This document shows positions 21,384 to 42,034 of a stretch of 64,000 nucleotides of DNA, piece after piece. The stretch spans positions 2,214,532 through 2,278,531 of the forward strand of contig OZ251531.1 of assembly GCA_965243185.1 (NCBI GenBank). The letters run 5' to 3'. Position 1 is the first letter of the stretch. Each line of letters opens with the position of its first letter. A program made the position numbers and the translations under genes. This DNA is from Dehalococcoidia bacterium. Lineage in GTDB: Bacteria > Chloroflexota > Dehalococcoidia > Lucifugimonadales > UBA3495. The notes under the pieces were generated by a model. It saw nothing but the letters and a program-made list of their open reading frames with translations, did not search any database and had not been told where the DNA came from.

Positions 21384-23138
21384 CTACCGCCGCCCGAACT
21401 CCCGCTCCATCTGATAGGAACTGAAATGCAGCAGCGTCGGCCGTCCGTGGGGGCAGGTATGGGGATTGTCCGTAACCTCCAGTTGTTCCAGCAGGGCGCG
21501 CATTTCCGCATCGGTCAACGATTGGCCGGCCCGGATGGCGCTGTGGCAGGCCACGGACGCCGCCAGTATATCCTCCCGCTCCTTCAGCAATCCCTCAAAG
21601 GCCGCCAAATCCAGCACATCCCGCAGCGACCGCGCCGGGTCTTGCGTGGTCAGCATCGCCGGCATTGCCCGCAGCAGGTAGCTGTTGCCCCCGCCAAACG
21701 GTTCCACCTCAAATCCGTAGGTTTGCAGGAACTCCCGGCTGCCTTCCAGCGTCTCCAACTGCCCCGGCGTCAACTCCACCACTGCCGGCGACAGCAGCGG
21801 CTGCGCCTGAACCTCCCGCTGCGCTGTCCCCTGCACAATGCGGTCAAACAAAACCCGCTCGTGGGCTGCGTGCTGATCCACCAGATACATCCCGTCCGGG
21901 CTTTCCGCCACAATATAAGTCAACCGCACCTGTCCCACCACCCGCAAAGCCGGCAAAGCCTGCTGCGGCGTCAAGGCGGCCCCTACCGGCCCGGCGCCGT
22001 CCTCCCCGGCCCTGGCGTCCCTGCTAATTGCCGCATTGCCCGGACTGCGCGCGTCAAAAGGACTGCGGAAAAACCCCGGAGTCCCGGAATTGCCGCCCGC
22101 CCCGATAGTCCGCACCGGCCCGCTAATATCCCGCACCGGCGCGGCCGCGACCAACGCCGCCCGGGCCGCTCGTTGCAGTGCCGCATATACTTTCCCCTCC
22201 TGATGAAACCGCACCTCCCGCTTTGCCGGGTGCGAATTCACATCCACCGCATCATAAGGCAGCGTCAAGTTCAGCGCCGCCAAGGGGTAACGCTTTTCCG
22301 GCAGCAAACCGTGATAGGCTTCCTCCAAGGCAAAGGACAGCAGCCGGCTCTGTATCCACCGCCGGTTGACGAAAAAGGTCATATAAGTGCGGTTCGCCCG
22401 GTGCAGGTTGGGCGCGCCGGCAAACCCCGCAACCCGATAGCCGGTCTCTGGGTCTTGCCCGGCGACTTCCAGCATTGCCGCCGCCGCTTCCGCCCCATAC
22501 ACCGCCAGTAAAACCTCCGCCGGCCGCCCGCTGCCCGGCGTGGCTAAGGCTTGCCGGTCGCCCAATGTCAAGCGGAAAGCGATTTCCGGGTACGCCAGCG
22601 CATAGCGGGAAACCAGCTCGTGGACGCGGCCGCCCTCAGCATTAGCCGATTTCAGAAACTTCCGCCGGGCTGGCAGATTGCCGAACAAATCCGCCACCGT
22701 CACCGCCGTTCCCGGCGGCCCGCCTTCCGCCCCTTCCTTCAGCAGCTTGCCCCAGACGAAATCAATGCAATAGCACCGGTCGGCAGCCGCCGGCCGGGTG
22801 GTCAAAGTCATTCGGGAAACGGCGGCGATACTGGGCAGGGCTTCACCGCGAAAGCCCAAAGTGCCGATAGCGTCCAACTGCTCCGGCCCGCTCAGCTTGC
22901 TGGTAGCGTGATGCTGAAACGCCAGCGCGACTTCATCCGGCGGGATACCCGAACCGTCATCCACCACCCGGATGCGCTCAATCCCGCCGCCCCGGATTTC
23001 CACGCTGATGCGACCAGCCCCGGCGTCAATGGCATTCTCCACCAACTCCTTGACCACCGACGCCGGCCGTTCCACTACCTCGCCGGCCGCAATCTGCGCC
23101 GCCAATTCCGGGGACAGCAGTCTGATCGGCATCAGCAA
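21384..23138 (-). CDS. mutL: DNA mismatch repair protein MutL
   Basis: GHKL ATPase motifs (VVKELVENAIDAG, GFRGEAL) and a C-terminal dimerisation domain. Confidence 0.92.
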   Translation of the reverse strand: MLMPIRLLSPELAAQIAAGEVVERPASVVKELVENAIDAGAGRISVEIRGGGIERIRVVDDGSGIPPDEVALAFQHHATSKLSGPEQLDAIGTLGFRGEALPSIAAVSRMTLTTRPAAADRCYCIDFVWGKLLKEGAEGGPPGTAVTVADLFGNLPARRKFLKSANAEGGRVHELVSRYALAYPEIAFRLTLGDRQALATPGSGRPAEVLLAVYGAEAAAAMLEVAGQDPETGYRVAGFAGAPNLHRANRTYMTFFVNRRWIQSRLLSFALEEAYHGLLPEKRYPLAALNLTLPYDAVDVNSHPAKREVRFHQEGKVYAALQRAARAALVAAAPVRDISGPVRTIGAGGNSGTPGFFRSPFDARSPGNAAISRDARAGEDGAGPVGAALTPQQALPALRVVGQVRLTYIVAESPDGMYLVDQHAAHERVLFDRIVQGTAQREVQAQPLLSPAVVELTPGQLETLEGSREFLQTYGFEVEPFGGGNSYLLRAMPAMLTTQDPARSLRDVLDLAAFEGLLKEREDILAASVACHSAIRAGQSLTDAEMRALLEQLEVTDNPHTCPHGRPTLLHFSSYQMEREFGRR

Positions 23139-23156
23139 ACCCCGGCCGGCAAACGC

Positions 23157-23594
23157 CTACCACAACGGCAGCACGGTGCCTTTCGCCCGATACTGCTTAT
23201 CCTCGGAAGTCCCTGCCGTGGCAAAATCGCAGACGATTTGATAGACCCGGGCCATCTGCTGGTCCACATTCCGCGCAAAAAAGTACGGCGGCACCCACGC
23301 CCCCCCAAAGGCCGCTACTACCTCCGGGTAATCGTCAATCACGAACTCCGGCTCAAAGGGAATCCGCAGCTCCTCCAGCCGCTCGTGAAAGTGGTGCGTC
23401 GGCTTCTCGTACACCCCGCTGATGAACGGGTTCAGGTGATGCTTCTCCACCACCTCCCACCGTTCCCCCATCCCCGACCAGATGTAGATTTCGTGCTGGT
23501 CTTCCAGCAGCTTCTGAAAGGTCTCCTTGGTGCCGGGCCGCAGCGTGTCGTCCAGCCCCAGGATGGTGTAGTCCACATCAAAGAATATCTTCAT
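23157..23594 (-). CDS. Small HAD-like hydrolase
   Basis: N-terminal FFDVDYT (DxD nucleophile motif); 145 aa. Confidence 0.55.
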   Translation of the reverse strand: MKIFFDVDYTILGLDDTLRPGTKETFQKLLEDQHEIYIWSGMGERWEVVEKHHLNPFISGVYEKPTHHFHERLEELRIPFEPEFVIDDYPEVVAAFGGAWVPPYFFARNVDQQMARVYQIVCDFATAGTSEDKQYRAKGTVLPLW

Positions 23595-23821
23595 CGTCCG
23601 ACTAAAGTCCCCCCGACGGTAAAAATCGGCTAAAAGAATATCATAACCGTTAATATGTCAACAATAGAATCATTGCAATTTTCTCCGTCTTTTTTGCCGA
23701 ACCGCGACTCGTCCTTCCCACGAAAGGGGAATCCAGCGTCCCCGCAACTTCCGGATTCCCCCTTTCTCGGCTCTCGGCAATGACCGGTTTAAGCGGTAGT
23801 AGCAATAACCGGCTAGACCCG

Positions 23822-24172
23822 CTACTCCAACGCCGCCGCCAGTGCCTTCAGGTTCGCCCCGATAATCAGCCGGTCGCCCAGCCGGGTTATCGGCCGCCGC
23901 AGCAAGCGCGGCTCCTCCAGAATCAGCCGACGCAGCTCCGCATCGGCCAGCTCCTGCCCGGCCAACCCCAGCTGATTCAGGCTAGGACTCCGCCACGCAA
24001 ACAGCTCCGACAGCGGCGCCAATCCCGCCAGTTCCTCCAACTCCTCCGGCCGCAGCGGCTCCTTGAAATAATCCCGTTCCGCCACCGCGATCCCCTTCTG
24101 CAAGAGCAACTCTCTCGCCTTGCGGCAGGAACTTCAACGCGGCCACCAGTAAAAAGTTGCTTGTTCCCCCAA
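23822..24172 (-). CDS. ArsC/Spx-family thioredoxin-fold protein with an in-frame TGA (candidate Sec) at 24134-24136
   Basis: GGGAGGG RBS then TTG 24172. The frame reads MGEQATFYWWPR-TGA-SSCRKARELLLQKGI and continues into the 95-aa track ORF. The TGA replaces the first Cys of the family CxxC / PRC motif. Confidence 0.7.
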
Positions 24173-24314
24173 AGCGTCCCTCCCGGCGGCTTGGCTAACT
24201 ATCGGTATCCCCCGGCCCGCCGCCAATTCCGCCCTATTCTAGCCCCGGTCGTCGGGGAATTAAAAGGCATTACCAGCGCGGTTTATGCCGAAATCCTTGC
24301 CGGCTGAACCCGCG

Positions 24315-26975
24315 CTAACCCTTGCTCCCATTGCGCGCCCGCTCCTGCAACTCATACAACTTGTTAATCGCCTCCAGCGGCGTCAAGTTGGGAATATCCA
24401 AGTCCAGCACCGCATCCCGCAGCGGCTCCTCCGGCTGAAACAACGGCATTTGCGCGATAGCCGCCTCCTGCCCCGACCGCCGGCCCTTGCCGCCGGCCCG
24501 GCTCGATGCCGCGCCCTGCTCCAGTTCCGCCAACGCCTCCCACGCCCGGCTCACTACCGCCCGCGGCAGCCCGGCCAGTTGCGCCACATGAACCCCGTAA
24601 CTGCGGTCGGCTCCCCCCGGCACAATCCGATGCAGAAACACTACCCGCCCCTCCTCCTCGGCCACTGCCACGCTGTAGTTGCGGACGCCCGGCAAAGTCT
24701 GCGCCAACTCCGTCAATTCGTGGTAGTGCGTGGCAAACAGCGACTTGCAGCCCAAACGCGGGTCATTATGCAGATGTTCAATCACCGCCCGGGCAATTGA
24801 CAACCCGTCATAAGTGCTAGTGCCGCGCCCGATTTCATCCAGCACCACCAGCGACCGCGGCGTGGCTTGGTTCAATATCGCCGCCGTTTCCACCATCTCC
24901 ACCATAAAAGTGGACTGCCCGGTGGTCAAATCATCCTGCAACCCCACCCGCGTAAAAATCCGATCCACTAACCCGATTTCCGCCGCCGCCGCCGGCACAA
25001 AGCTCCCGATTTGCGCCATCAAAACGATAATCGCCGCTTGCCGTATATAGGTGGACTTCCCCGCCATATTCGGCCCGGTCAGCACAATCACCCGCGCCGC
25101 GCCATTGGCAATCTGCAAATCGTTAGGCACATAAGCCCCCGCCCCCAGCGTCCGCTCCACTACCGGATGCCGCCCGTCCTTGATACTGATGGCATCCCCA
25201 CCGTTCAGCTTCGGCCGCACATAGTCGTACCGCACTGCTACTTCAGCCAGGGCCGCGAACACATCCAAAGCCGCAATCCCGGCCGCTAACCGCCCGATTG
25301 GCTCCGCATATCCCCCCAACTGGCTGCACACCTGCCGAAACAGCGATCGCTCCAATTCCTGAATCCGTTCCTGCGAATGTAGCACCAGCGACTCGTACTC
25401 TTTCAACTCCGGGACGATGAACCGTTCCCCGTTAGTCAAAGTCTGCCGGCGGATATAATCCGGCGGCGCCTGCCGCAGGTTGGCTTTGCTGATCTCGATG
25501 TAATACCCGAAAATCTGATTGTAGCCTACCCGCAGGTTGCGGATGCCGGTGCGTTGCCGTTCCCGGCTTTCCAACCCGGCGATAAAACCCCGGGCATCCC
25601 GCCCGGCCGCTTTCAATTCATCCAGTTCCGGGGAAAAGCCTTCCCGGATAACCTTGCCTTCCCCCACAATCCCCGTCGGTTCCGCGGCGATAGATTCCTC
25701 AATCAGCGCCGCCGCCGCTGGCACCGGCCCCAACTGCCGCGCCAGCCAAGCCACCGACTCCGCCGCCCCATCCTCTCTTGCCAAAGTAGCCGCCAGCGAC
25801 TCCGCCGCCGCCAGCCCCGCTTTCAACGCCGTCAAGTCCCGGGGCATCGCCGTGCCGGCTTGCACCCGCCCCAGTATCCGCTCCAAATCGGCAATGTTGC
25901 CCAACAGACTGCGGGCATCGCTGCGGCGGAAAGCGTCGGCGAAAAAATGCTCCACCGCATCCAGCCGCTGCTCCAACTCCCCGGTCTCCAGCAGCGGCTG
26001 CCCCAGCCATCGCCGCAGCAGACGCCCGCCCATCGCCGTCCGGGTATCATCCAACGCCGCCAGCAGCGAAAACTGCCGGCTTTCCCACCGCCCGGCTGCA
26101 AACAACTCCAGATTGCGCCGGGTTTGCGCATCCAGCGTCATATAAGCCGCCGTGGAATAAACCCCCAACGCCGCCAGCCGGGGCTTGGCCGCCTTGTAAG
26201 TCTGCCCCAAGTAATCCACAATCGCCCCGGCCGCCCGCGTCGCCAACGGCAAATCGGCGCACCCAAAGGCTTCCAAAGAGCGAATGTCATAGTGGGACAG
26301 CAGCGCATCCCGGGCGATGTCCCAGTCAAAAGTAGCCGGGTTCAGCCGGGTCAAGGAATAGCCCGACCGGTCAACGCCCTCTCCGCCATCCTCTACGGAA
26401 CCGGAGCCGTATCCGTGGCCGTTGCCGGCCCCCAACCATGCCGGCGGCGTATCGGCCGCCGCGATCAGAACTTCCGCCGGCCCAATCCGCTCCAACTCCG
26501 GCAATAGTCGCTCCACCGCCAGTTGTGTTGCCGCAAACTCCCCAGTGGTAATGTCCACATAAGCCAGCCCCGCCGCCGCCTCATCCACTACTACCGCCGC
26601 CAAGTAGTTGTTGGCTTTCTGCTCCAGCAGCCCCGTCTCTACCACTGTGCCCGGCGTAACCACCCGCACCACATCCCGCTCCACCAATCCTCGGGATGCC
26701 GCCGGGTCCGACAGCTGTTCGCAGATGGCTACCTTATGCCCCTTCTTGATCAGCCGCGCCAAGTACGACTCCAGCGCCACCGCCGGGATCCCGGCCATTG
26801 GCACTTTCAGGCTCTTGCCCAAGCGGCGCGAAGTGAGCGCAATCTCCAACTCCCGCGCCGCCAAATGCGCGTCATCGTCAAAAGTTTCGTAAAAATCCCC
26901 CATCCGGAACAGCACCAACGCGTCCGGATAGGAATGTTTGATTTTTAGATACTGGCGGCGTACCGGCGTAACCAT
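24315..26975 (-). CDS. mutS: DNA mismatch repair protein MutS
   Basis: Mismatch-binding N-terminus (FYETF), Walker A GPNMAGKST and DEIGRGTSTYDG. Confidence 0.93.
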   Translation of the reverse strand: MVTPVRRQYLKIKHSYPDALVLFRMGDFYETFDDDAHLAARELEIALTSRRLGKSLKVPMAGIPAVALESYLARLIKKGHKVAICEQLSDPAASRGLVERDVVRVVTPGTVVETGLLEQKANNYLAAVVVDEAAAGLAYVDITTGEFAATQLAVERLLPELERIGPAEVLIAAADTPPAWLGAGNGHGYGSGSVEDGGEGVDRSGYSLTRLNPATFDWDIARDALLSHYDIRSLEAFGCADLPLATRAAGAIVDYLGQTYKAAKPRLAALGVYSTAAYMTLDAQTRRNLELFAAGRWESRQFSLLAALDDTRTAMGGRLLRRWLGQPLLETGELEQRLDAVEHFFADAFRRSDARSLLGNIADLERILGRVQAGTAMPRDLTALKAGLAAAESLAATLAREDGAAESVAWLARQLGPVPAAAALIEESIAAEPTGIVGEGKVIREGFSPELDELKAAGRDARGFIAGLESRERQRTGIRNLRVGYNQIFGYYIEISKANLRQAPPDYIRRQTLTNGERFIVPELKEYESLVLHSQERIQELERSLFRQVCSQLGGYAEPIGRLAAGIAALDVFAALAEVAVRYDYVRPKLNGGDAISIKDGRHPVVERTLGAGAYVPNDLQIANGAARVIVLTGPNMAGKSTYIRQAAIIVLMAQIGSFVPAAAAEIGLVDRIFTRVGLQDDLTTGQSTFMVEMVETAAILNQATPRSLVVLDEIGRGTSTYDGLSIARAVIEHLHNDPRLGCKSLFATHYHELTELAQTLPGVRNYSVAVAEEEGRVVFLHRIVPGGADRSYGVHVAQLAGLPRAVVSRAWEALAELEQGAASSRAGGKGRRSGQEAAIAQMPLFQPEEPLRDAVLDLDIPNLTPLEAINKLYELQERARNGSKG

Positions 26976-27145: not shown

Positions 27146-27913
27146 CTACTCTTTCCAGAACCGTTCCTCCCGGAACTGCCAACCCTGCGGCGTAACTATT
27201 TCCTTCACCCCGGCAATCATCCCCGGATGCCCGCAGGTATAGACCATCGTATCCTCTGGCGGCAGGTCAAACTCGGCCAGGTAATGCTCCACCAGATTGT
27301 TGAGCCGTCCCGTTGCCCCGGCCCACCCGGCGTTGCGCTCCTCATTAGGACGACTCACCGCCGGCACAAACTTGATAAAATCCGGATACTGCGCCGCCAG
27401 TGCCGCCAACTCCCGGTCATAGGTCAGCTCATCCTGATAACTGGCGCCCAGCAGCACATAAAAATAGTGGCCCGTCCCGCCCTGATGCAGATACTCCCGG
27501 ATGATGCTCAAGTACGGCCCCACCCCGGTCACCGTGGCCAGCATCAAATGATGATGTACCTTTTCGTTCAGGGTAAAAATCCCCTTGGGCCGCGGCCGGA
27601 TGGACATTGTATCCCCCACCGCCATTTGCCACATCTTGGGCGTCAACCCCCCCTCCGGCACCAACTCCACGAAAATCTCCAGCGTCTCCTCGTACGGCGC
27701 GGACACGATGGAATAGGCCCGTTCCACTCCCTCTTTGCCCAGGGTGCAATACTGCCCCGGCTTGAACTTGAACGGCCCCTCCTGCGGCGCCAGCTTCATC
27801 ACCATCAACTCCTCGGTGATGTCCCGCCGTTCAACCAGTTCGGCTTGCGGCAGCTGGTCCGTGCGGTATTGCGGCCGCCCCGGGGCCGCCGCCCTATCGC
27901 TGCTGGTGGTCAT
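27146..27913 (-). CDS. Ferredoxin-NADP+ reductase-type FAD/NAD(P) oxidoreductase
   Basis: RAYSIVS FAD-binding (RxYS) motif and a C-terminal NAD(P)-binding domain; 255 aa. Confidence 0.8.
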   Translation of the reverse strand: MTTSSDRAAAPGRPQYRTDQLPQAELVERRDITEELMVMKLAPQEGPFKFKPGQYCTLGKEGVERAYSIVSAPYEETLEIFVELVPEGGLTPKMWQMAVGDTMSIRPRPKGIFTLNEKVHHHLMLATVTGVGPYLSIIREYLHQGGTGHYFYVLLGASYQDELTYDRELAALAAQYPDFIKFVPAVSRPNEERNAGWAGATGRLNNLVEHYLAEFDLPPEDTMVYTCGHPGMIAGVKEIVTPQGWQFREERFWKE

Positions 27914-28048
27914 CTTTACCTCGCTTCAACTAATTTTCCAGGGATTGCCGGGGACAATTCACCCCGAACGTTTCCCAAACCGTCCGAAACTAAACCGCCG
28001 TCTCCGAACTACCCTCCGGTCAATCCGTCCCCGCCGGCTCGCAATACC

Positions 28049-30910
28049 CTAATCCCCGTTACCGCCCTCCGCCGCCACTTTCACCACCCGCGCCGGCAAA
28101 ATATCCAACCCCGGCACCCGGGACATCGGATCCGGCTCCGTCGAATTCTGCAAATCCACCGCCAGTTGCCCGAACAGAATCGTCGCCGCCACCGTCCCCC
28201 TCGGCCGCGCCGAATCCAGCCGCGCTTGCCCGGCCAGCCGTCCTCCCGGCGTCTGCACTTCCACTGTATCCCCCTCGACAATGCCCCACGCGGCCGCATC
28301 CTCCGGGTTCAACTCCACCACTTCCTCCCGTTCAATGCGGTTGCTACCGCCCGGCCCATCCGCCGTCACCCGGGTATCCCGATCCCGTTGCAGCAGCACC
28401 CGCCCCGGCACAAACCGCGCCGGATAATCCCCATCCACATCCGCCGCGGCCAGCGCCGCCCGGAATTGCGGAATCAGCCAATCCGCCTTGCCCCCGGGAA
28501 AACCATCCTGGTACAGAATCGCCGTCCCGCCGCCGCTTTCCCCCGCCGGCCACTGTAGCCCCCGCTGCTCCTTGCTGACATAAAGCAACTGTGTCGGCTG
28601 CGGACTTTCCAACCCGCTCCGCAAAGTCAACCCCGTTTCCTTTTCCAACCGGGCATAGGATATTCCGGCATAATTGGGAACCACTTCCGCGATTTCATCC
28701 ATCACCGCCCCGGCATCCGGATAGTCAAAGCCGGCCGCGCCCAACCGTTGCCCCAACTGGCAAAACACCCACTGCTCCGGTTTAGCGTTGCCGCTTTGCG
28801 GCTGAAACACCGGCCGCACCCGCTGCACCCGTCGCTCCAAATTGGTATAAGTCCCATCCTTTTCCGCAAAGGATACCCGCGGCAAAACTACCTCCGCCAG
28901 TTGCGCCGGCCGGCTCAGGAAAGTATCCATCACCACCAGAAACTCCAGGTTCTGCAATGCCGCCAACCCGTCCCCCAAGCGGCCGTTCACCAGGTTATAG
29001 CTGTCTCCCACCAGCAGCATTGCCTTGACCGTCCCTTGCCGCGCCGCCGCCGCCATTTGCGGCAAGCCCAAACCGGCCTCCGTTGGCAAAGCGCAGCCCC
29101 ACCGTTCCTCCAGTTCCTGCCGCGCCGGACGTTCCCCCCGCCCGGGTTTCACTCCCGGCAGTAGGTCGTGAACGCAGCCCACATCCACCGCGCCCGCTTC
29201 ATTAGTTCCTTGCGGCAGCGGATAAATCCCTGCCCCCGCCTTGCCCACATTCCCGGTCAGTAACGCCAGGTTCACCAAAGCGTTGACGCAATCCCGCTGC
29301 AAATCCGGGTCGATGTTGTCCAGCGAATAGCAAACCGCGGCCTTATCCGCCTCCCCGAAAAACTCGGCCGCCCGGGCCATTTCCGCCCGCCCCACTCCGG
29401 TAATGGCGGCGATTTCCTCCAGATCCAGGTTGTTCAGGTAGTAATACAGCGTAGCCGGATCCTCGCACCGCTGCTCCACCCATTCCTTATCGACCCGCCC
29501 CTGCTCCACCACTTCCCGCAGTAATCCCCCCAGTAGCAGCAACTCCGTGCCGGGAATCGGCCGCAGCCAGCAGGCGGCGTAGCGGGTCAGCTCTACCTCC
29601 CGGGGGTCAATAACTATCAGCTTCGCCCCGGCTTTCACCGCCCGCTTTATCGGCACCCCCACCACATTGTTGTCCTCGGTCAGGTTGCTGTTGAACACCA
29701 AAATCGCCCCGGCCCGCTCCAAATCCCAAATCGGATTGGTCGCCCACCGGTAACCCAAGGCTTGCTCCAACCCCCCGGTCAATTCCGGCTGCAAGTTGGA
29801 AGTCAAGTCCACATTGTTGGACTGCATCGCCACCCGCGCCAACTTCTGCGCCAGGTAATGCTCCTCCGTAGTCCCGTTGGGCGCTGCCAACAGCCCGAAA
29901 GCCGCTCCCCGGTACTCGGCCAGCCGTTGGGCAATGTAGTCCAACGCCTCCTCCCAGCTGCATTCCGTCAGTTGCCCCTCCCGCCGTAGCAGCGGCGTCT
30001 GCAACCGGTCGCCCCGGTTAATAAACTCCAACCCGAACTTCCCCTTGAAACACCCTTGCCCCCGGTTGGCGGGCGAATTATATTCCGGCACCACCCGAAT
30101 CAGCTGCCCGTCCCCGTTCAGCTCCAAATTCAGCTGACAGCCCACCGGGCAGTGCGGGCAAATCGTCCGTTCCACCCGCCGCGCCTTTTCCCACTTGTGT
30201 TCCCGCTCCACCAACGCCCCTACCGGGCAGACATCAATACACGCCCCGCAAAACTCGCACCCCGACTCCAGTAGCGATGACCCGAAAGAAGTCCCCACCA
30301 ACGCCTTGCCCGACCGTTCGGTGAAACAAATAGCGTCATCCCCCCGGATTTCCTCACACGCCCGCACGCACCGCCCGCAGGTGATGCACAGGTTATAGTC
30401 CCGGTCATAAAAGGGATCCGCCACTTCCAGCGGAATCTGCTTGTATTTATAGTTCAGCGGCGACTCCAGCTCCATCCCCAGATAGCGCACCGTATCCTTG
30501 AACTCGCACCGCTCATTCTTGGGACAGGTAACGCAGCGGTCATTCACCGCCACATGACGCAGGCAAATATCCTGCGGCCCGCAAATGTCAATCCGATGGC
30601 AGGTCAGGCAGCCGTTGGGATGTTCCGCAATCAGCATCTGCATTACCGACCGCCGCAGTTCGTTCACATCCCGCGTCTCGCTGCGAATTCGCATCCCGTC
30701 CGCCGCCGGCAAAGTGCAGGCCGCCGGAAAGCCCCGCCCGCCTTCGACCGCCACCACGCACATTCGGCAGGCCGCGTACGGCTCCATCCCCGGATGGTAG
30801 CACAGATACGGAACATAGATGCCGGCGTCAATGGCCGCTTCCAGGACCATTTTGCCCCGTTCCGTAGTTATCTCCACCCCGTCAATGGCGATGGTAATTT
30901 CCTCAGCCAT
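28049..30910 (-). CDS. nuoG: NuoG-like Fe-S / molybdopterin-oxidoreductase-fold subunit (FdsA architecture, no catalytic Cys/Sec)
   Basis: N-terminal 2Fe-2S motif (CYHPGMEPYAACRMC), 4Fe-4S motifs and CPHCPVGC. At the formate dehydrogenase Cys/Sec-His position the sequence reads NNVDLTSNLQPE. Confidence 0.8.
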   Translation of the reverse strand: MAEEITIAIDGVEITTERGKMVLEAAIDAGIYVPYLCYHPGMEPYAACRMCVVAVEGGRGFPAACTLPAADGMRIRSETRDVNELRRSVMQMLIAEHPNGCLTCHRIDICGPQDICLRHVAVNDRCVTCPKNERCEFKDTVRYLGMELESPLNYKYKQIPLEVADPFYDRDYNLCITCGRCVRACEEIRGDDAICFTERSGKALVGTSFGSSLLESGCEFCGACIDVCPVGALVEREHKWEKARRVERTICPHCPVGCQLNLELNGDGQLIRVVPEYNSPANRGQGCFKGKFGLEFINRGDRLQTPLLRREGQLTECSWEEALDYIAQRLAEYRGAAFGLLAAPNGTTEEHYLAQKLARVAMQSNNVDLTSNLQPELTGGLEQALGYRWATNPIWDLERAGAILVFNSNLTEDNNVVGVPIKRAVKAGAKLIVIDPREVELTRYAACWLRPIPGTELLLLGGLLREVVEQGRVDKEWVEQRCEDPATLYYYLNNLDLEEIAAITGVGRAEMARAAEFFGEADKAAVCYSLDNIDPDLQRDCVNALVNLALLTGNVGKAGAGIYPLPQGTNEAGAVDVGCVHDLLPGVKPGRGERPARQELEERWGCALPTEAGLGLPQMAAAARQGTVKAMLLVGDSYNLVNGRLGDGLAALQNLEFLVVMDTFLSRPAQLAEVVLPRVSFAEKDGTYTNLERRVQRVRPVFQPQSGNAKPEQWVFCQLGQRLGAAGFDYPDAGAVMDEIAEVVPNYAGISYARLEKETGLTLRSGLESPQPTQLLYVSKEQRGLQWPAGESGGGTAILYQDGFPGGKADWLIPQFRAALAAADVDGDYPARFVPGRVLLQRDRDTRVTADGPGGSNRIEREEVVELNPEDAAAWGIVEGDTVEVQTPGGRLAGQARLDSARPRGTVAATILFGQLAVDLQNSTEPDPMSRVPGLDILPARVVKVAAEGGNGD

Positions 30911-30955
30911 TCAATCCTCGCGCAGCCCTTGCCCAATGCTGCTGCTAATCGTCAA

Positions 30956-32680
30956 CTACCGCCGGCTCAGCCGCGGCGTAAAATGCGGCTCCCCGCACCG
31001 GCCGGTCGGACACCGCTTCTCCTCAATATGCGCCGCAAACTCCTCGGGAAAATACCGCAGCGCCGACGCCACCGGGCTGAACCCCAATTGCCCATGCCCG
31101 CACAGCGAACCGGCTTGCATATTCAACCCCACCGACCGCATCAAATCCAAATCCTCCGGGCCGCCCTCCAGCCGTCCAATCCGCTCCAACGCCTCCAGCA
31201 GATGACTCATCCCCATCCGACAGGGAAAGCACTTGCCGCAGGACTCGTACTGGCAAAAGGCAATCAATACCCGCGTCAAATCCACCACGCAGGCATCATC
31301 CCCCGCGGCGATTATCCCCCCGGAACCCAAAATCGCCCCGGCATTGCGAAACACCTCAAAATCCAGCAGCAAATCCGCCGCATCGATCCCCAGCACGCCC
31401 CCCAACGGCCCCCCGGTCTGAATAAACTTCAACTTCCGGCCCGCCGGCGGCCCCCCGGCAATTTCATACAGCACCTCTTGCAGGTTCAACCCCATCGGCA
31501 GCTCCACCATTCCGGTATAATTCAACGCCCCGCTCAGGCACAAAATCACCGTCCCGGTGCTGCGCTCGTGGCCGATGCCCGCAAACCACTCTCCGCCCTT
31601 GGCGATAATCTCCGGCACATACGCCAAAGTTTTGACATTGTTGATATTGGTCGGCTTCCCGAAAACTCCCACTTGCGCCGGAAACGGCGGCCGGTACCGC
31701 GGCATCGACCGCTTCCCCTCAATGGCCTCCATCAACGCCGTTTCCTCCCCGGCAACATAGGAATCCCCGGTTAAAGCCACCTCCAGGTCAAACTGGAACC
31801 CCGACCCCAGAATATCCGCCCCCAGTAGTCCCAACTCGTAGGCTTGCGCCACCGCCGCCTTGGCCCGCTCAATCGGCCCATCGTGCCCGTGCCGAATGAA
31901 AATATACCCGTAGTTGGCCCCGGTAGCGTACCCGGCCAGTATCATCCCCTCCACTACCGTATGCGGGTCGCTCTCCAAAATCCCCTTATCGTTAAACGCC
32001 CCCGGGTCGCCCTCCTCGCAGTTGCACAGAATATACTTGTCCGCCGCCCCGTTATCCGCCAGAAACTTCCACTTAACCCCGGTGGCAAAGGCCGCGCCGC
32101 CGCGCCCCCGCAGCCCCGACGCCGTAACCTCCTCCCTTACCCCCTCCGGCGTCATTGCCGTCAACGCCTGCTGCAAAGCCGCGTAACCCCCGTTAGCCAC
32201 ATACTGGTAAATATCCAGCGGGTCAATCTGCCCGGCATTCCGCAAAGCAATCCGCTGCTCCTTAACCCGCATCGGATGCCGGTTCAAGTCCGGCAGCCCA
32301 ATGCCGCCGCTGTCATCCCCCTCGGGATAAATGCAGCCCAACGCAGCCGCCGCTACCGGTACGCCCCCGACAATATGGGACGCCACAATTTCCTCGGCCA
32401 ATTCCGGGCTGACCTTCCCGTAAAAAACCCGCGCCTGCCCCGGCACGGCCACCTCCACCAACGGCTCCGCAAAGCACAGCCCCAAGCAGCCCACCCGACT
32501 CACCACCGCATCCAAACCCCGCCTTGCCAACGCCGTCTCCAGCGCCGCCGCCGCTTCCTCCGCTCCCGCCGCCTGCCCGCACAACGCCGTCCCCACCCGC
32601 AGCCACGGCCGCCCGCCGGCCGTCAACTCCGTCCAGCGGCTGGCCGCGGCGGCCTGGATTTCCTCAAAAGTGGGGAACAT
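30956..32680 (-). CDS. nuoF: NuoF-like NADH-binding FMN/4Fe-4S subunit with an N-terminal extension
   Basis: GRGGAAFATGVKW FMN/NADH motif and ESCGKCFPCR 4Fe-4S motif. Confidence 0.88.
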   Translation of the reverse strand: MFPTFEEIQAAAASRWTELTAGGRPWLRVGTALCGQAAGAEEAAAALETALARRGLDAVVSRVGCLGLCFAEPLVEVAVPGQARVFYGKVSPELAEEIVASHIVGGVPVAAAALGCIYPEGDDSGGIGLPDLNRHPMRVKEQRIALRNAGQIDPLDIYQYVANGGYAALQQALTAMTPEGVREEVTASGLRGRGGAAFATGVKWKFLADNGAADKYILCNCEEGDPGAFNDKGILESDPHTVVEGMILAGYATGANYGYIFIRHGHDGPIERAKAAVAQAYELGLLGADILGSGFQFDLEVALTGDSYVAGEETALMEAIEGKRSMPRYRPPFPAQVGVFGKPTNINNVKTLAYVPEIIAKGGEWFAGIGHERSTGTVILCLSGALNYTGMVELPMGLNLQEVLYEIAGGPPAGRKLKFIQTGGPLGGVLGIDAADLLLDFEVFRNAGAILGSGGIIAAGDDACVVDLTRVLIAFCQYESCGKCFPCRMGMSHLLEALERIGRLEGGPEDLDLMRSVGLNMQAGSLCGHGQLGFSPVASALRYFPEEFAAHIEEKRCPTGRCGEPHFTPRLSRR

Positions 32681-32688
32681 ACCGAACT

Positions 32689-33162
32689 TTACTCCGGAGA
32701 CTGACCCAAGGCTTGGGTCACCCGGCGGCCCGCTTCCTCCGGCGAAAGCCGGCCGACTAAATGATGATTAACCGACATCACCGGCGCCAGGGCGCAGGCC
32801 CCCAAGCAGGTATTGTACCGCACCGACAGCCGCCCGTCCGGGGTATCGCCTTCCTCCTCCAACCCGGCCGCCGCCAGCGTCGCCGCAATCACCGGCATTG
32901 CCCCAACCAAATGGCACGACGGCCCCCAGCAGACCTCAATCCGCTGCTCGCAAGGCGGCGTCGTGCGAAAATTGGGATAAAAGGACACCACCGCCCAAAC
33001 ATCATTGACCGTAGCCTGGTTGAACTCCGCCACCGCCGCCACCGCTTCCTTGGGGATATACCCCAATTCATCCTCCACCGCCAGCAGCGACGACAGAATC
33101 GTAATCGTCCGTTGCGGCTGCCGCGCCACCGCCCGGCTGCTCCGTTCCTTCAGCCCATCCAT
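32689..33162 (-). CDS. nuoE: NuoE-like 2Fe-2S thioredoxin-like subunit
   Basis: CWGPSCHLVG ... CLGACALAP cysteine pattern. Start set at MDGLKER. Confidence 0.85.
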   Translation of the reverse strand: MDGLKERSSRAVARQPQRTITILSSLLAVEDELGYIPKEAVAAVAEFNQATVNDVWAVVSFYPNFRTTPPCEQRIEVCWGPSCHLVGAMPVIAATLAAAGLEEEGDTPDGRLSVRYNTCLGACALAPVMSVNHHLVGRLSPEEAGRRVTQALGQSPE

Positions 33163-33284
33163 CTGCCGGGAACCTGACCTCTGCCTAAATACTCTGCGCC
33201 TGACTATCGCCCCGCCCCGTAACCCCGCCGGAATGTTACCACAGGAAAATAGGCGGTTCAACCAATTTTCCCGCCGCCAGCCCC

Positions 33285-33929
33285 CTACTCCCCCTGCAAA
33301 TACTGCCGCATCGCCGACCGGAAAATATCGTATGGATGCGCCCCGGTGAACATCAAATTCCCCACCACAAAGGTCGGAATCCCCCGGATCCCGTACTGCA
33401 ACGCCTCCTGATACTGCTGCATCACCACCCCCGAATAGGTATGCGCCGCCAAATGCTCCAGCAGCTCCTCGGCATTCAGCGATACCGCCCGCGCCACCTC
33501 CGCCAACGCCGCCGGCTGCCCCAAATCCAGCCCTTCCTCCCAATAGGCTTTATAGGCGGCGTGATGAAACTCCAGAAACTTCCCCTGCTGCTGGGCATAC
33601 TCCGTCGCTTCCAGCGCATACAGCGTATTCGGCGTAACCGCCGGCGGCCGCATAATCAATCCGGCCTCCCGCACCTGCGACCGAATCGGTTCCGCCAATT
33701 CCTCCGCCGTTTCCCCGGCCCGCGGCTGCCGCTGCAAACCCTCCTGCGGCGTATCCGGCCGCAACAGATAAGCCCGCCCCTCCACGGCGATGTTGTAATC
33801 CTGACCCAACTTGTCAACCCGCTCCAGGCCGACATAGCACCAGGGTCAAATATAGTCATACCAGACGATAACCCGCACCGGCTCCGTCCCCTTGCCCCCC
33901 GCCGCCATCCCCTGCGCCGCTTCCTCCAT
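33285..33929 (-). CDS. DsbA/FrnE-like oxidoreductase with an in-frame TGA (candidate Sec) at 33846-33848
   Basis: AGGAGG RBS then ATG 33929. The frame reads ...PVRVIVWYDYI-TGA-PWCYVGLERVDKLGQDY and continues into the 174-aa track ORF. The TGA replaces the first Cys of CPWC. Confidence 0.75.
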
Positions 33930-34018
33930 AACCAACCTCCTGTTCAACCGGACTTACCCGCCCGGCGCGAGCAATCCTCGGTAAAACTCCCGGCCCCTGG
34001 TGAATTGAATCAGCCCCC

Positions 34019-35236: not shown

Positions 35237-35369
35237 ACGCAGATTGTTGCTTTGCAATACCAAGCCCGGTTGCGCGGTAAAATCTGCCTTAACTAAAAAT
35301 GCTCTGAAAGCAAATGGAGACATCGCGGGGATTAAGGCACAGCGGCCGCCGGGCGGCAAGGAGCTATTG

Positions 35370-38300
35370 ATGGACGGAGATGGAGCAAATCGTCTCTTTT
35401 TCTGCCCGGCCGGGCCAGCGGCCGCGGCGGCCTTGGGATCTTATGTCCGGGCCATACAAGGGGATGACCCCTTGGCGCCGGTTACCGTGGTCGGGCCATC
35501 GACTTACGCCAACCTGGCCTTGCGGCGGGAGTTGGGGCGCGGCGGGTTGGCTAATGTGGGATTTGTGCATCCGCATCGGTTGGCCGATTTGTTGGGTGGG
35601 CCGCGGCTGGCGGCGCGGGGATTGCGGCCGCTGACGCCGCTAGTGGAAAGCCAAGCCCTACGGCAGGCGGTGAGCCAGACGGACGGCTTGCTGCGGGAAA
35701 AAGGCTACCATCCCGCTACGCACCGGACGCTAAAGGCGGCGATACGGGAACTGGCGCAGCTCTCCCCGGCGGAAAAGACGGCGTGGCAAGGGCGCGGCAG
35801 CCAGTTGAGCCGGGAGATATTGCAGATTGAGACCGCCTTTCGGGAGCTTACGGCCGGTTACTACACCGAGGCCGAGGATTTGGCGCAGGCGGCGGCGTAC
35901 GGGGTAAGAACCGGCGGACAGGGCAACGCCCTGACCGACTTGGGATTGGTGATTTTCTTTCAACTGCGGCGGATTACGGCGGGGCAGCAGGAGCTTATTG
36001 AATCGTTAGCGGCCGCCGGTAAATGCGCCGTTTTTTTGCCGCTGGTGGGCGATGACGAAGGCGACCGGGCGGCGCGGGAAATCGCGGAACGATTGACCGG
36101 CGCTTTGGGGACGCCGACGGTTTATGCTGAGGTTGGGTCAAGTAGGGATGGAAATGCGCCGCCCGCCGACCGGGTTTCCGGGATGCGGCTGCTGGTAGCC
36201 CAAGACGCCCATCAGGAAATACGGTGGGTTATCCGCAACATTTTCCGCCAGATCAGCAGCGGTACGCCGCTGCACCGGATCGCGGTTCTGTATCGGCAGA
36301 CTTTCTACGGCGCGCTGATACCGGAGGAGTTGGCATTAGCCGGTCTGCCGGCAGCCGGGCCAAATACGACGCCGCTGACGCAAACCGGGCCGGGGCGGAC
36401 GCTGACCGGCTTGGTCAACTTGGCGCAAGGCGTCCGGGCGGCGCAAGGGCGGGAACTGCCCCGGGAGGAAGTTACGGCGTGGCTGACCGCTTGCCCGGTG
36501 CGCTTTCCGGGCGGGTTAGCGGCGGATTTTAACCCCAGCCAGTGGGACAATATATCCAAGCAAGCCGGCATCGTCCGGGGCTTGGCGCAGTGGCAGGATA
36601 AGCTGAGCCGGTTGGCTAGTGACCGGGCGCGGCAAGCGGAACGTTTAGCTGCGCAGGGGGAAGTGTCCGAGGCCAAGGCGGAATTGATGGCGGCGGAAAG
36701 CCGGGCCGCCGGACAACTGCGCGGGTTTATTACCGGGTTGGCGGCGGCGTTGATGCCGCCAGCCGAGGGCAGTTCGTGGGGCGAGTTTGCTCAGTGGGTC
36801 AGGAAACTGCTGGAACGCTACGGGGCGGCGGCTACCCTGTCCGATGCCGAAGCGCAAAACCGGGAACGGATTGGCGAAGTAGTAGCAAGCCTGGCCGAAC
36901 TGGATCAACTGGAGACCGGCGGTATCGGGTCTGACCGGTTCCGGGAGACTCTGGATGAAGCCTTGGCCGGAACGCCGGGACGCTTGGGGGCAACGGGGCA
37001 AGGGGTCTTTGTTGCGCCGTTAAGCCAAGCGGCCGGAATGTCCTTTGACGCGGTACATCTGGTCGGAATGGTCGAGGGGGCGTTTCCGCCGCCACTACGG
37101 GAATCGCCGCTGCTGCCGGAGTCGGAAAAACCGGCTGAAGTGGGCGCTGGTTGGCGGCCATCCCGGTCGGAACGGTTAGCCGATGAGCGGCACAACTTTA
37201 TGGCGGCCCTGGCGGCGGCGCCGCTGCAAACCCTTTCCTATCCCTTGGCCGACGCCGGCGGTTCCCGGGGCAACTACCCGTCCCGGTGGTTTCTGGAACA
37301 GGCAACGCGGCTGGAAGGGAAAGCGGTGCGGAGTTCCACCCTGAAATCCCTGGTCAATCAAAAGGAGTGGCTGACCGCCATCGGTTCCCCGGAACAGGAA
37401 TTTGGCAGCATCGCGGGTTTGGCGGCGGCCGACCAGCACGATTATGACCTGGCAAGTTTGTGGGATTGCCGGGAACGGAGCGGCGGCATTCGGCAGCATC
37501 CCCTGGCTAAAGAGGGCATCCTGGCCGGCGCGCTGCAAGTAGGTCGGAGCCGCTACAATCCCTATTACGGCTCCTACTTTTCGGAATGGAACGGCAACTT
37601 GGCTGGGGCCGCCGGCCCGTCGGGATTGGCCGGCGGGTTGAGCGGACAAGTGCTTTCGCCGACCGGCTTGGAAAAGTGGTCCAACTGCCCCTTCAGCTAC
37701 TTTCTGGGGCAGCAACTGCGGTTGAGCGCGCAGGACAGCCCGGAGGACATCTACCGCATATCGGCCTTGGAGCAGGGTTCGCTGATCCACGAAATCCTGG
37801 AGCAGTTTATCGGGCAAGCCCGGGAGCGGGGAACGGTGCCGCCGCCGGGGCAAGGGTGGACGGATGCGGACGCCGGGGTTTTGCAGGAAATTGCGGAAAG
37901 GGCGTTCCAGGAAGCGGAAAGCCGGGGCATTACCGGACGGACGCTGCTGTGGCGAATGTCCCAAGCGGATATTCGGGATGATTTGACGGCATTTCTCGAA
38001 GCGGATACGTATGTGCGGGAACGGTTCGGCTTGTCGCCGGCGCGGGAGGAAGCGCGGTTCGGCATTGACGGCGACAACGCCGCCGATAGCTGGGCGGCGG
38101 CGGTCTATCGGCTGCGGGACGGGACGGAAATACGGTTCCGGGGCGTGATTGACCGGGTTGACCGGTCGGCAGACGGGCGGGCGGCTTTGGTGCTGGACTA
38201 CAAGAGCGGGGGCGCCAGTCGGTACGCCGGTTTGGAGGAGGATGCCATTGATAAGGGGCGGCGATTGCAGTTGGGCATTTACGGACTGGCGGCGCAGCAG

Positions 38301-38663
38301 GCTTTGGGCGCGGAAGTGCAGGTGCGGGCGGCGTACTGGTTCGTGAGCAGCCGGGGCGGGTTCAAGCTGATACCCGAGGAGCCGGTGCGTATGGAGGATG
38401 CGGCGGTGCAGGAACGGTTTGAGGAAGGCATCGCCGCCATCGTCTCCGGGATTCGGGGCGGCGTGTTTCCGGCTAATCCGGGGCCGTGGGATTTCAACAG
38501 TTTCTTGGGCAAGTCCAACGGCAAGAACTGCCATTACTGCGATTTTGACGCCCTGTGTCCGGCGCGGCGGGTGAACCTGTGGGAACGGCTGAAAGGCCGC
38601 CGGGAAAATCAGCGGGCCCTGGCCGGCTATCTGGAATTGGCTGAGGAGGAGTCTGAGGAATGA
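35370..38663 (+). CDS. addB: AddB/AdnA-like helicase-nuclease subunit (PD-(D/E)XK nuclease with C-terminal Fe-S cysteines)
   Basis: About 1100 aa. C-terminal DYKSG nuclease motif and CHYCDFDALCP. AAGGAG RBS before ATG 35370. The stop overlaps the next gene's start (ATGA). Confidence 0.75.
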   Translation: MDGDGANRLFFCPAGPAAAAALGSYVRAIQGDDPLAPVTVVGPSTYANLALRRELGRGGLANVGFVHPHRLADLLGGPRLAARGLRPLTPLVESQALRQAVSQTDGLLREKGYHPATHRTLKAAIRELAQLSPAEKTAWQGRGSQLSREILQIETAFRELTAGYYTEAEDLAQAAAYGVRTGGQGNALTDLGLVIFFQLRRITAGQQELIESLAAAGKCAVFLPLVGDDEGDRAAREIAERLTGALGTPTVYAEVGSSRDGNAPPADRVSGMRLLVAQDAHQEIRWVIRNIFRQISSGTPLHRIAVLYRQTFYGALIPEELALAGLPAAGPNTTPLTQTGPGRTLTGLVNLAQGVRAAQGRELPREEVTAWLTACPVRFPGGLAADFNPSQWDNISKQAGIVRGLAQWQDKLSRLASDRARQAERLAAQGEVSEAKAELMAAESRAAGQLRGFITGLAAALMPPAEGSSWGEFAQWVRKLLERYGAAATLSDAEAQNRERIGEVVASLAELDQLETGGIGSDRFRETLDEALAGTPGRLGATGQGVFVAPLSQAAGMSFDAVHLVGMVEGAFPPPLRESPLLPESEKPAEVGAGWRPSRSERLADERHNFMAALAAAPLQTLSYPLADAGGSRGNYPSRWFLEQATRLEGKAVRSSTLKSLVNQKEWLTAIGSPEQEFGSIAGLAAADQHDYDLASLWDCRERSGGIRQHPLAKEGILAGALQVGRSRYNPYYGSYFSEWNGNLAGAAGPSGLAGGLSGQVLSPTGLEKWSNCPFSYFLGQQLRLSAQDSPEDIYRISALEQGSLIHEILEQFIGQARERGTVPPPGQGWTDADAGVLQEIAERAFQEAESRGITGRTLLWRMSQADIRDDLTAFLEADTYVRERFGLSPAREEARFGIDGDNAADSWAAAVYRLRDGTEIRFRGVIDRVDRSADGRAALVLDYKSGGASRYAGLEEDAIDKGRRLQLGIYGLAAQQALGAEVQVRAAYWFVSSRGGFKLIPEEPVRMEDAAVQERFEEGIAAIVSGIRGGVFPANPGPWDFNSFLGKSNGKNCHYCDFDALCPARRVNLWERLKGRRENQRALAGYLELAEEESEE

Positions 38664-41600: not shown

Positions 41601-42034
41601 CCCAAGCCGCCGGGGAGAATATCCCGGGGCGGCGGCAGGAAATTATTGACTTGGTCCAAGTAGCTTTAGATAGCCCGGCAGTGCGGCGGGCGGTGGCGTC
41701 CGGGCGGTACTGGCGGGAAGTGCCGGTAGCCGCGCCTTTGGGCGACGGGCTGGTCGAGGGCTTTATCGACCTGCTCTATGAAACCGAGGGCGGGTTGGCC
41801 GTGGTCGATTACAAGACGGACGATATTGACGCGGCGGAAACCGGGGAGACGCTGCAACGTTACCGGTTGCAGGGCGGCACCTACGCTTTGGCCGTGGAGC
41901 GGGCGACGGGGAAAGCAGTAAAGGAAGTCGCGTTCCTGTTCCTGCGCCCCAACCGGGAGGAACGGCTGACCGACATCGGGCAACTGACCGCGGAAGCGGA
42001 AGGGCGGGCGTTGGCGTATTTGCAGGGCGGGTAG
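38660..42034 (+). CDS. addA: AddA/AdnB/RecB-like UvrD-family helicase-nuclease
   Basis: Walker A AGAGTGKT, DEVQDT, VMTVHGAKGLEFP, and a C-terminal GFIDLLY...VVDYKTD nuclease motif. Confidence 0.85.
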   Translation: MTSAFTPQDDAARQRILHGLGDTLFVEAGAGTGKTTSLVGRVANLVSSGATTLDRVAAITFTEAAAAELRDKIRERLEESAAPDSALRDLERERCERGLADLDQASFQTLHSFAGGLLRERPLEAGLPIAFQIADPIVSQLDFDRAWRDWLDTALEREELQVPLTMALSLGLNLTRLREVAVAFHQNYDIVEQTDFEDGEDSEDKEPANPVAGQLAAEADELARLCGYSRLGAEDALYQHTQGVIAAGRRLDGMNPTAAESYRLLQKVRLSCGRGRQGDWDNDPKSGGNACKLLKDRLKELQAAANDELAAARRQSLLLLLRELRTFVLDYAAQRKAAGKAEYNDLLIWARDLLRDNLAARDYFRGRFSHLLIDEVQDTDPIQAEIAMFLAEAVTPGIAAAGRPQEWEAITPEAGKLFVVGDPKQSIYRFRRADVRQMNRLRQRMGGETLQLTQNFRSQRPVIAWVNRLFEQWMRQGSPEQAQYVDLIHRWDGASEHLQKPGVWRLGAGIDENVNAVRREGAEAVASLLSGIPGEGWPVRDTAAAGEQYRDAGFSDVCILMPRRTSLRELEQALDDADLPYRLEGSSLIFDTQEVRDLLNCLRAIDDPANQVAIAAALRSPAFGCSDISLLELVQAGGSFDYLAELPTAAAAGPASQGLRELKGYHYARLEESPALLMERFIRERQLMAAALEQQRPRQQWRRYRFMINQTRAFTEAGGGSLREFLSWAEQQAAENARVTETPVPEEQEEAVRVMTVHGAKGLEFPIVILTGLDSGSPNRTETVLVDRERGQVEVRMGSGSQVFETPGYAELREREGQLGADEAVRLLYVAATRAKEHLVVNMYHREEGRDCPARQIAALLESDDGTGMWERIDAPPLDPAAAELLAAAAPATPETARDFMGQRERWRQERAKLIRAQSRPISVAATTLARVAKEEAAETAAETEPWRRGRGGTSIGRAVHAVLQTIDLATGEGLAETAQAQAAGENIPGRRQEIIDLVQVALDSPAVRRAVASGRYWREVPVAAPLGDGLVEGFIDLLYETEGGLAVVDYKTDDIDAAETGETLQRYRLQGGTYALAVERATGKAVKEVAFLFLRPNREERLTDIGQLTAEAEGRALAYLQGG

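Follow-up and report, generated by a model that had tools for sequence, protein, structure and literature searches.

Does an in-frame TGA end a small redox gene of a Dehalococcoidia bacterium, or does it encode selenocysteine (Sec)? The question is raised by a gene of the ArsC/Spx family located at 23822-24172, on the minus strand, of a 64,000-nucleotide stretch of contig OZ251531.1 (assembly GCA_965243185.1). This whole stretch is called the window below, and all coordinates follow its numbering. The gene was picked out by a reading of the raw sequence (the original prediction), which proposed that TGA replaces the first Cys of the CxxC motif and that the gene, together with a small HAD gene, is placed between mutS and mutL. 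Our analysis supports, with high confidence, that the locus is an ArsC/Spx-family thioredoxin-fold gene with a U-S-S-C redox motif and Sec at the TGA.

The full coding sequence has 116 codons and a stop. It starts from TTG (24170-24172), contains TGA as codon 13 (24134-24136) and ends with TAG at 23822-23824. The minus-strand translation reads L(TTG)GEQATFYWWPR, then the TGA, then SSCRKARELLLQKG...; beyond the TGA the frame runs from SSCRKARELLLQKGIAVAERDYFKEPL onward to its C-terminal end LIIGANLKALAAALE, which is followed by the stop. The Shine-Dalgarno-like sequence GGGAGGG was found where it had been predicted, at 24178-24184, 5 nt before the TTG. The proposed Sec (U13) would take position 1 of the U-S-S-C motif, with the Cys16 codon at 24125-24127 providing the resolving Cys. 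When U13 was substituted by Cys, the 116-residue protein matched the Pfam family ArsC (PF03960) with an E value of 6e-15 and 55.7 bits, against a cut-off of 24. The program-made list of open reading frames (ORFs) held a single piece of the gene, the 95 residues 3' of the TGA; an exact look-up of this piece in the assembly collection gave no record. This piece had been suspected to lack its N-terminus, and the same-frame coding sequence conserved 5' of the TGA confirms it. A plus-strand ORF of 175 residues (23780-24307) overlaps the gene. It was rejected as spurious antisense, and both the Pfam domain and the cross-genome conservation belong to the minus frame.

A scan of one genome per species returned 374 loci encoding a relative of the protein. 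The best 80 of them (L001-L080), nearly all labelled as metagenome-assembled genomes (MAGs) of Dehalococcoidia or Chloroflexota, were analysed with the window, giving 81 sequences. Chromosomes of close relatives include CBDESR010000005.1, whose protein is 92% identical, OZ240220.1 and OY730415.1. TGA was present at the identical aligned codon in all 80 loci (81/81 with the window). The conservation flanks this codon on both sides, covering the 12 N-terminal codons and the 103 C-terminal codons. The N-terminal part ends in [FLMI]YWWPR, and the TGA is followed by S-(S/T/A)-C-(R/K)-K, in which the Cys is invariant (TGC in 67 sequences, TGT in 14). The aligned start codon was ATG in 70, TTG in 7 and GTG in 2 of the 81 sequences; a ribosome-binding-site (RBS)-like motif stood at -20 to -4 in 79 of them, and stop codons lay just 5' of the aligned start in the orthologs inspected. 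The codons before the TGA showed synonymous variation, with Phe as TTC (26) or TTT (22), Tyr as TAC (41) or TAT (37), and Pro spelled by all four of its codons. Judged from these alignments, the locus is almost certainly a real gene that is read through the TGA.

Two side observations were made on this set of sequences. The codon right before the UGA (24137-24139, minus strand) is CGT in 79 of the 81 sequences, despite six available Arg codons, and the other Arg codons of the gene are diverse; Sec decoding may require this sequence context. One locus (L035, CATMQD010000066.1) carries a Flavobacteriales MAG label, yet it has the Dehalococcoidia-type block of mutS, ArsC-like gene, HAD gene and mutL and is near-identical to L033, L044 and L074. 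It is probably mis-binned.

The public annotation gives a different picture of the gene. A protein search returned 156 relatives, and nearly all of the best 120 were 89-102 residues long and began just past the TGA. Full-length database entries were uncommon; they read FYWWPR-C-SSCRK (P0007) or FYWWPR-W-STCRK (P0032, P0055 and P0056). These short calls are what one would expect if the TGA were a true stop, the locus being either a pseudogene or the gene of a 95-residue, N-truncated protein started from an internal TTG, and the failure to find Sec machinery in the window and the flanking loci would fit that explanation as well. The start positions of the truncated calls differ between orthologs, and a product of this kind would be devoid of strand 1 and of the entire redox motif. 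A pseudogene would not retain one identical lesion and an intact frame over a class-level radiation. Because the 12 codons before the TGA, the start and the RBS are conserved in the 81 sequences with coding-type synonymous variation, we consider a pseudogene or a true stop to be effectively ruled out, that is, extremely unlikely. The original prediction had named consistent truncation of orthologs as a result that would speak against it. What we found is that the truncation concerns gene calls only, and that it is a gene-calling artefact, since the ortholog DNA remains coding across the TGA. One entry from a search of representative sequences (P0151, 545 residues) joins the C-terminal region of MutS to the C-terminal two-thirds of the ArsC-like protein; most likely it is a gene call or a frameshift across the intergenic region and the TGA-interrupted gene rather than a true fusion.

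If the gene is read through, the residue at codon 13 has to be identified, and more distant relatives are informative about it. Whether orthologs carry Cys at this position was a check proposed with the original prediction. Besides the 80 loci with TGA, Cys was aligned at the U position in full-length relatives including P0007 (FYWWPR-C-SSC), P0123, P0125, P0126 and P0129-P0133, among others. For P0007, a Cys variant of the same ortholog, the DNA was available on a 1.4-kb Logan contig (L083, 365-736). It has TGC for TGA at the key codon, the SECIS-like (selenocysteine insertion sequence-like) hairpin described below is fully intact, and the same 145-residue HAD-type gene follows downstream; this is either a very recent replacement of Sec by Cys or a sequencing or read error. 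In-frame TGA was also seen farther out, in homologs that have other gene neighbours (L087-L091). Three truncated calls with other neighbours likewise had the TGA in frame and a UxxC motif, and at the corresponding place a hairpin whose loop reads NGUNG. An exhaustive search of cluster representatives showed that the wider family is mixed, its best 150 entries including no fewer than 53 full-length forms with CxxC and no fewer than 61 calls cut short at the N-terminus.

Next to the conserved TGA lies a conserved RNA structure. The 60 nt from the TGA onward were aligned for all 81 sequences, and RNAalifold predicted a single hairpin, in which columns 19-25 pair with columns 31-37 around an AGUUG loop in columns 26-30. 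In the window this candidate SECIS element covers 24100-24118 on the minus strand, with a 7-bp stem GCGAGAG/CUCUUGC (24118-24112 with 24106-24100) and the loop at 24111-24107. The hairpin begins 15 nt after the UGA, and its loop 22 nt after. In this register 99.8% of the alignment cells formed standard pairs, and three of the seven pairs showed compensatory changes (CG 33, UA 29, UG 15; AU 62, CG 16; AU 45, GU 30, GC 3). None of 500 shuffles reached the observed pairing or covariation score, and all slid registers fell to 34-65% paired. In two of the swaps, one arm changes its amino acid and the opposite arm changes synonymously or conservatively, as with Val GTA plus Leu TTA versus Ala GCR plus Leu TTG. 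Synonymous sites are frozen at codons 21-23, which form the loop and the 3' arm (Glu GAG in 79/79, Leu TTG in 69/70, Leu CTC in 80/81), whereas at most Leu and Arg positions in the rest of the gene 4-6 codons are in use, with a diversity of about 0.5-0.77. The G-U of the loop is invariant across the orthologs. This geometry is typical for bacterial SECIS models, though the element is short.

The original prediction had included a hand-folded hairpin at 24100-24123, with a GCAAGG/UCUUGC stem and a GAGAG loop. It holds as the minimum-energy fold of the window sequence, but as a conserved structure it was rejected. Its register (columns 14-19 with 32-37) was only 77.8% paired across the alignment and showed no covariation; it was the more stable one in only 4 of the 81 sequences, and the conserved register in 77. 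Both registers use the same 3' arm.

Selenocysteine is not the only residue that a read-through codon could give. The TGA might be decoded as another amino acid, namely Trp or Gly after reassignment of the codon, or Trp or Cys in a near-cognate read-through. The Trp in the database versions of P0032, P0055, P0056 and P0122, all of which read WS(T/S)C, would agree with this, and Sec machinery is not shown for this genome. Most simply, these entries are translations made under a TGA-as-Trp code. In the window, TGA is the ordinary stop of the DinG-like helicase-exonuclease gene, of the DUF2298 membrane protein gene and of the AddB-like nuclease gene, where the stop overlaps the ATG of the next gene as ATGA. 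Since TGA terminates bona fide genes of the window, it is not reassigned. Homologs have Cys rather than Trp at the U position, this position is that of the nucleophilic Cys of CxxC and a classic site of Sec/Cys exchange, and a covarying hairpin is present at the SECIS distance. Decoding as something other than Sec is thus a very unlikely explanation.

A second conserved TGA gene lies about 10 kb away. Scanning systematically for TGA codons that sit in a redox-motif context, we detected a DsbA/FrnE-like gene at 33285-33947 on the minus strand (Pfam DSBA, 9e-35), with TGA at 33848-33846 in a putative U-P-W-C motif. It reads VRVIVWYDYI-TGA-PWCYVG and is probably the gene listed as candidate 1 in the original prediction. 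The TGA was kept in L092 and in all 10 of the loci where a sequence-motif search of the 80 flanks found the gene, and it is followed by a stable hairpin (z = -2.46). The best 120 homologs were all N-truncated calls, several of them seemingly on chromosomes that bear the ArsC-like gene. A second gene of this kind in the same genomes lends indirect support to Sec decoding.

Further indirect support comes from reports of selenoprotein-rich Dehalococcoidia MAGs. In BSepDB, a bacterial selenoprotein database that takes in a species only if it has two or more of SelA, SelB and SelD, two Dehalococcoidia MAGs are among the top ten bacteria by number of selenoprotein genes, with 49 and 46 (PMC13326102). 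One of the two MAGs belongs to the UUID-named assembly series that also supplied many of the loci analysed here. As a separate observation, the stop codons of 20 large ORFs of the window (2158-61776) were TAG in 12, TAA in 5 and TGA in 3, at 61% G+C, where TGA is normally common. In this small sample, the scarcity of TGA stops might mean that an organism rich in selenoproteins avoids TGA.

Several results weigh against decoding of the TGA as Sec and against the function that we propose. A tblastn search with E. coli SelA, SelB and SelD gave no match at 1e-5 in either the window or the 80 flanks, each of 20 kb, and a tRNA scan found no tRNA gene in the window and no tRNA-Sec in 60 flanking loci. 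Support for Sec decoding is therefore indirect, as selA, selB, selD and tRNA-Sec were not found in the window and the 80 flanks. The hairpin is short, its folding energy in the window sequence is unexceptional (z = -0.75 and -1.23 for pieces of 60-71 nt), and an alternative register of the window sequence is slightly more stable (-11.0 versus -9.7 kcal/mol). An Rfam scan of the window brought up no family at the gathering score. Part of the hairpin conservation is at the protein level, because the hairpin overlaps the conserved codons of R-E-L-L. Finally, the function of the protein is derived solely from its motif and fold.

Taking the evidence on both sides together, the TGA is very probably read through by insertion of selenocysteine, mediated by SelB and the hairpin. 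In this mechanism, translation would start at the TTG at 24172 (ATG in most orthologs). The 7-bp hairpin with its AGUUG loop, 15 nt past UGA codon 13 in the mRNA, would recruit SelB with Sec-tRNA(Sec), and selenocysteine would be inserted at codon 13 in place of termination. In the folded protein, helix 1 would be immediately preceded by Sec13 and would hold Cys16 in its first turn, and these two residues could cycle between the selenol/thiol and the selenenylsulfide forms.

To which protein does this motif belong? Among NCBIfam models, the best matches of the Cys-substituted window protein were Spx/MgsR models, both below their cut-offs (TIGR01617, 53.4 versus 75.05; NF002459, 53.3 versus 123). 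The model for ArsC proper was not reached (TIGR00014, 44.2 bits versus 106.05), nor was NF041106, named 'ArsC family (seleno)protein' (34.2 versus 85; 30-47 for Cys relatives), which is a related but distinct subfamily. Because its scores lie below these curated cut-offs, the protein is filed in the ArsC family, nearest to Spx, and not as Spx, ArsC proper or a member of NF041106. The closest solved structures by sequence were those of Spx (E 4e-13, about 35% identity over 104 residues), followed by ArsC and YffB. An AlphaFold2 (AF2) model of the Cys ortholog P0007 had a mean predicted local confidence (pLDDT) of 90.4 and placed the redox motif after strand 1, at the start of helix 1. In a Foldseek search with this model, the top PDB matches were all ArsC-family proteins (Spx, YffB, ArsC), with template-modelling (TM) scores of 0.67-0.81.

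The window protein was further aligned to E. coli ArsC and to Spx of B. subtilis, with an Spx sequence that is consistent with the PDB alignment. U13 aligned with Cys12 of ArsC and Cys10 of Spx. C16 aligned with Cys13 of Spx, where ArsC has Ser, and Arg93 aligned with Arg94 of ArsC and Arg92 of Spx. The column of ArsC Arg107 is Ala in the window protein, and the alignment at Arg60 was ambiguous. At the column of Spx Gly52 it has Ser, followed by a two-residue deletion, the loop alignment being uncertain here, and it ends about 15 residues short of the Spx C-terminus.

Based on the motif and the fold, we slightly favour a small selenol/thiol oxidoreductase as the product. One competitor is an Spx-like regulator, binding to the alpha subunit of RNA polymerase and switched by a selenenylsulfide, which would still be a selenoprotein. 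Spx being the closest solved relative by sequence, the match of U13/C16 to the switch cysteines C10/C13, the Spx/MgsR models as best NCBIfam hits, the shared RRP and G-x-N motifs, and the scores of the Cys relatives against TIGR01617 all point in its direction; those scores ranged from 60 to 75.6 against the cut-off of 75.05, and of the eight relatives scanned only P0123 passed, marginally, at 75.6. The window protein itself stays under both cut-offs, and the two regions in which it departs from Spx matter for regulation, as Gly52 is needed for the contact with the C-terminal domain of the alpha subunit and the C-terminal tail serves the control by ClpXP/YjbH. Moreover, the lineage is Chloroflexota rather than Bacillota, and the typical place of selenocysteine is a catalytic redox site, not a sensor. 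An Spx-like regulator is accordingly a minority possibility, and rather unlikely. Another competitor is a glutaredoxin-coupled arsenate reductase, ArsC proper, with a Sec nucleophile. Membership in Pfam ArsC and the equivalence of U13 and Arg93 to the catalytic Cys12 and to Arg94 of E. coli ArsC agree with it. ArsC, however, requires the Arg60/94/107 triad, and the third position is Ala here; the TIGR00014 score falls far short, the UxxC motif brings a resolving Cys where ArsC has CxxS, and the genes nearby are mutS, a HAD gene and mutL, with no ars genes. An arsenate reductase is hence very unlikely. The likeliest role of the product is that of a small selenol/thiol oxidoreductase or a redox sensor, and neither that of a canonical arsenate reductase nor that of a bona fide Spx.

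The gene order around the ArsC-like gene is well conserved. All four genes are on the minus strand. The upstream neighbour, mutS (24315-26975), has the Pfam MutS domains I-V and was upstream and co-directional in 75 of the 80 loci. Downstream are a 145-residue gene for a capless HAD-type phosphatase-like protein (23157-23594; downstream in 79/80 loci) and mutL (21384-23138; Pfam MutL_C, DNA_mis_repair and HATPase; downstream in 77/80). The Pfam matches of the neighbours and the HAD motifs in the 145-residue ORF bear out the predicted single co-directional block. Conservation of this order in related genomes, which had been suggested as a synteny check, was observed in 72 of the 80 loci, and the exceptions were mostly contig ends.

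The 145-residue protein is the most conserved of the four, above MutS and MutL, with 57-99% identity in 79 loci and at least 73% in 78. Among its best 120 protein-search matches, 114 were exactly 145 residues long and the others 147-164, and Chloroflexi and SAR202 records label it 'hypothetical'. It had no Pfam match at the gathering threshold, and matches to HAD models were weak. Its invariant residues are D6-x-D8-x-T10, S40, K64 and D87-D88, which we take to be the four HAD motifs. An AF2 model (pLDDT 86) weakly matched capless HAD phosphatases in Foldseek, among them MDP-1, KDN-9-P phosphatase and the 3'-phosphatase domain of T4 Pnkp, with a best E value of 1.3e-3. The gene ends 19 nt before mutL. 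We regard its product as a small, highly conserved and as yet uncharacterised phosphatase linked to mutL. A scan of 23100-24400 for sigma-70 promoters and intrinsic terminators found none. About 60 nt past the stop of the ArsC-like gene, around 23725-23762 on the minus strand, there is an inverted repeat GGGGGAATCC...GGATTCCCC followed by TTTCG, which the terminator scan did not call because its loop is long and its T-run short. It may separate the ArsC-like gene from the HAD-mutL unit.

Does this placement connect the gene with mismatch repair? The mutS/mutL context was sought around the distant homologs P0126, P0128, P0135 and P0137 and was not present; their neighbours were genes for a molybdopterin oxidoreductase, CO-dehydrogenase-like subunits, an SDR and a rhodanese. 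As the neighbours of the distant homologs differ, the association with mutS/mutL is lineage-specific and does not establish a functional link to mismatch repair. A functional coupling of the gene to mismatch repair is speculative and improbable. The same low probability applies to a broader proposal that draws only on synteny, kept in 72 of the 80 loci over a deep radiation, in which the Spx-like Sec protein and the 145-residue HAD protein would be partners of MutS/MutL in Dehalococcoidia, forming a previously unrecognised, redox-controlled repair module. In one version of it, a selenium redox sensor, or a factor binding RNA polymerase or MutS/MutL, may tune mismatch repair, and the HAD protein may act on DNA ends or damaged nucleotides. 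The placement between mutS and mutL beside the conserved HAD phosphatase is a modest experimental lead rather than a demonstrated functional link.

Other genes of the window were noted in passing. It is rich in DNA-repair genes, with a DinG-like exonuclease-helicase (2158-5025) and an OGG-type 8-oxoguanine glycosylase (5025-5957) besides MutS, MutL and AddB/AddA-like nuclease-helicases (35244-38663 and 38660-42034). Between mutS and the DsbA-like gene, at 27146-33543 on the minus strand, lies an NAD-linked formate-dehydrogenase-like cluster comprising NuoE-like and NuoF-like proteins, an FNR-like reductase, and a 953-residue molybdopterin subunit that carries Fe-S domains at its N-terminus. 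As the gene of this subunit is without an in-frame TGA, it would be a non-Sec form in this selenium-using lineage.

ArsC-like UxxC selenoproteins are already known, as computational predictions only. What our analysis adds is a comparative demonstration in Dehalococcoidia, a covarying SECIS hairpin, evidence of systematic public mis-annotation, and a conserved block in which the gene and a HAD gene stand between mutS and mutL. The recoded gene was correctly found by a tool-free reading of raw sequence, whereas every public annotation that we examined shortens the product to 89-102 residues, and no NCBIfam model reaches its cut-off on the window protein. The definition of the subfamily by its start, the U-S-(S/T)-C motif and the 19-nt covarying SECIS hairpin could serve selenoprotein databases and annotation pipelines. 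The gene and the DsbA-like one at a distance of 10 kb together add to the evidence for extensive selenium use in Dehalococcoidia and SAR202-type bacteria. In the searchable literature we found no account of the Dehalococcoidia orthologs, of their SECIS hairpin or of the mutS/mutL context, and nothing relevant on a link of mutS with a selenoprotein or with Spx.

Finally, we compared the gene with known systems. Like the bacterial SECIS elements of the E. coli fdhF type that are recognised by SelB, the candidate hairpin is a stem-loop in the coding region just past the UGA, with a G-U in the apical loop. It differs from the fdhF element in being short (7 bp, loop of 5 nt), in lacking a bulged U, and in the position of the loop G-U, which is presumably 4 nt farther from the UGA than in fdhF. 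Search models for bacterial SECIS elements use a range of 16-37 nt, and the candidate loop at 22 nt falls inside it. With Spx/MgsR, the RNA-polymerase-binding redox regulators of Bacillota (PDB 1Z3E, 3GFK and 7F75), the window protein shares the fold (TM 0.67-0.77), the R-K-A, RRP and G-x-N motifs and the alignment of its UxxC with their CxxC switch; it differs in its sub-cut-off score, the altered Gly52 region, the missing C-terminal regulatory tail, the phylum, and Sec in place of Cys. It belongs to the same Pfam family as the glutaredoxin-coupled E. coli ArsC and YffB, with the same fold and with its nucleophile at the position of ArsC Cys12, but unlike them it has a resolving Cys, no equivalent of Arg107, scores far below the TIGR00014 and PRK10853 cut-offs, and no ars operon context.

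The nearest counterparts are predicted selenoproteins. ArsC-like selenoproteins have been listed since 2005-2006 (PMC1794560), and a 2022 review includes an 'Arsenate reductase-like protein, COG1393, UxxC' (PMC9312934). The selenoproteome derived from Global Ocean Sampling (GOS) data (Zhang & Gladyshev 2008) describes a predicted family 'Arsenate reductase 2', cd03032, with UxxC (PMC2398784). This family agrees with the window protein in its fold and in carrying UxxC at the equivalent position. With JCVI_READ_17177, one of its members, the window protein shares only 24% identity, so the GOS family lumps two subfamilies, and this member may correspond to NF041106. Another member, JCVI_READ_1318105, reads MIYYTWNK-U-STCKKTRELLLQ...FAKRSPSVKK...EPRLIRRPL (the part after MIYYTWNK-U is also given as STCKKTRELLLQNNF). 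It aligns with the window protein over 106 residues without gaps at 40% identity (E 7e-33), and the two have all family motifs in common.

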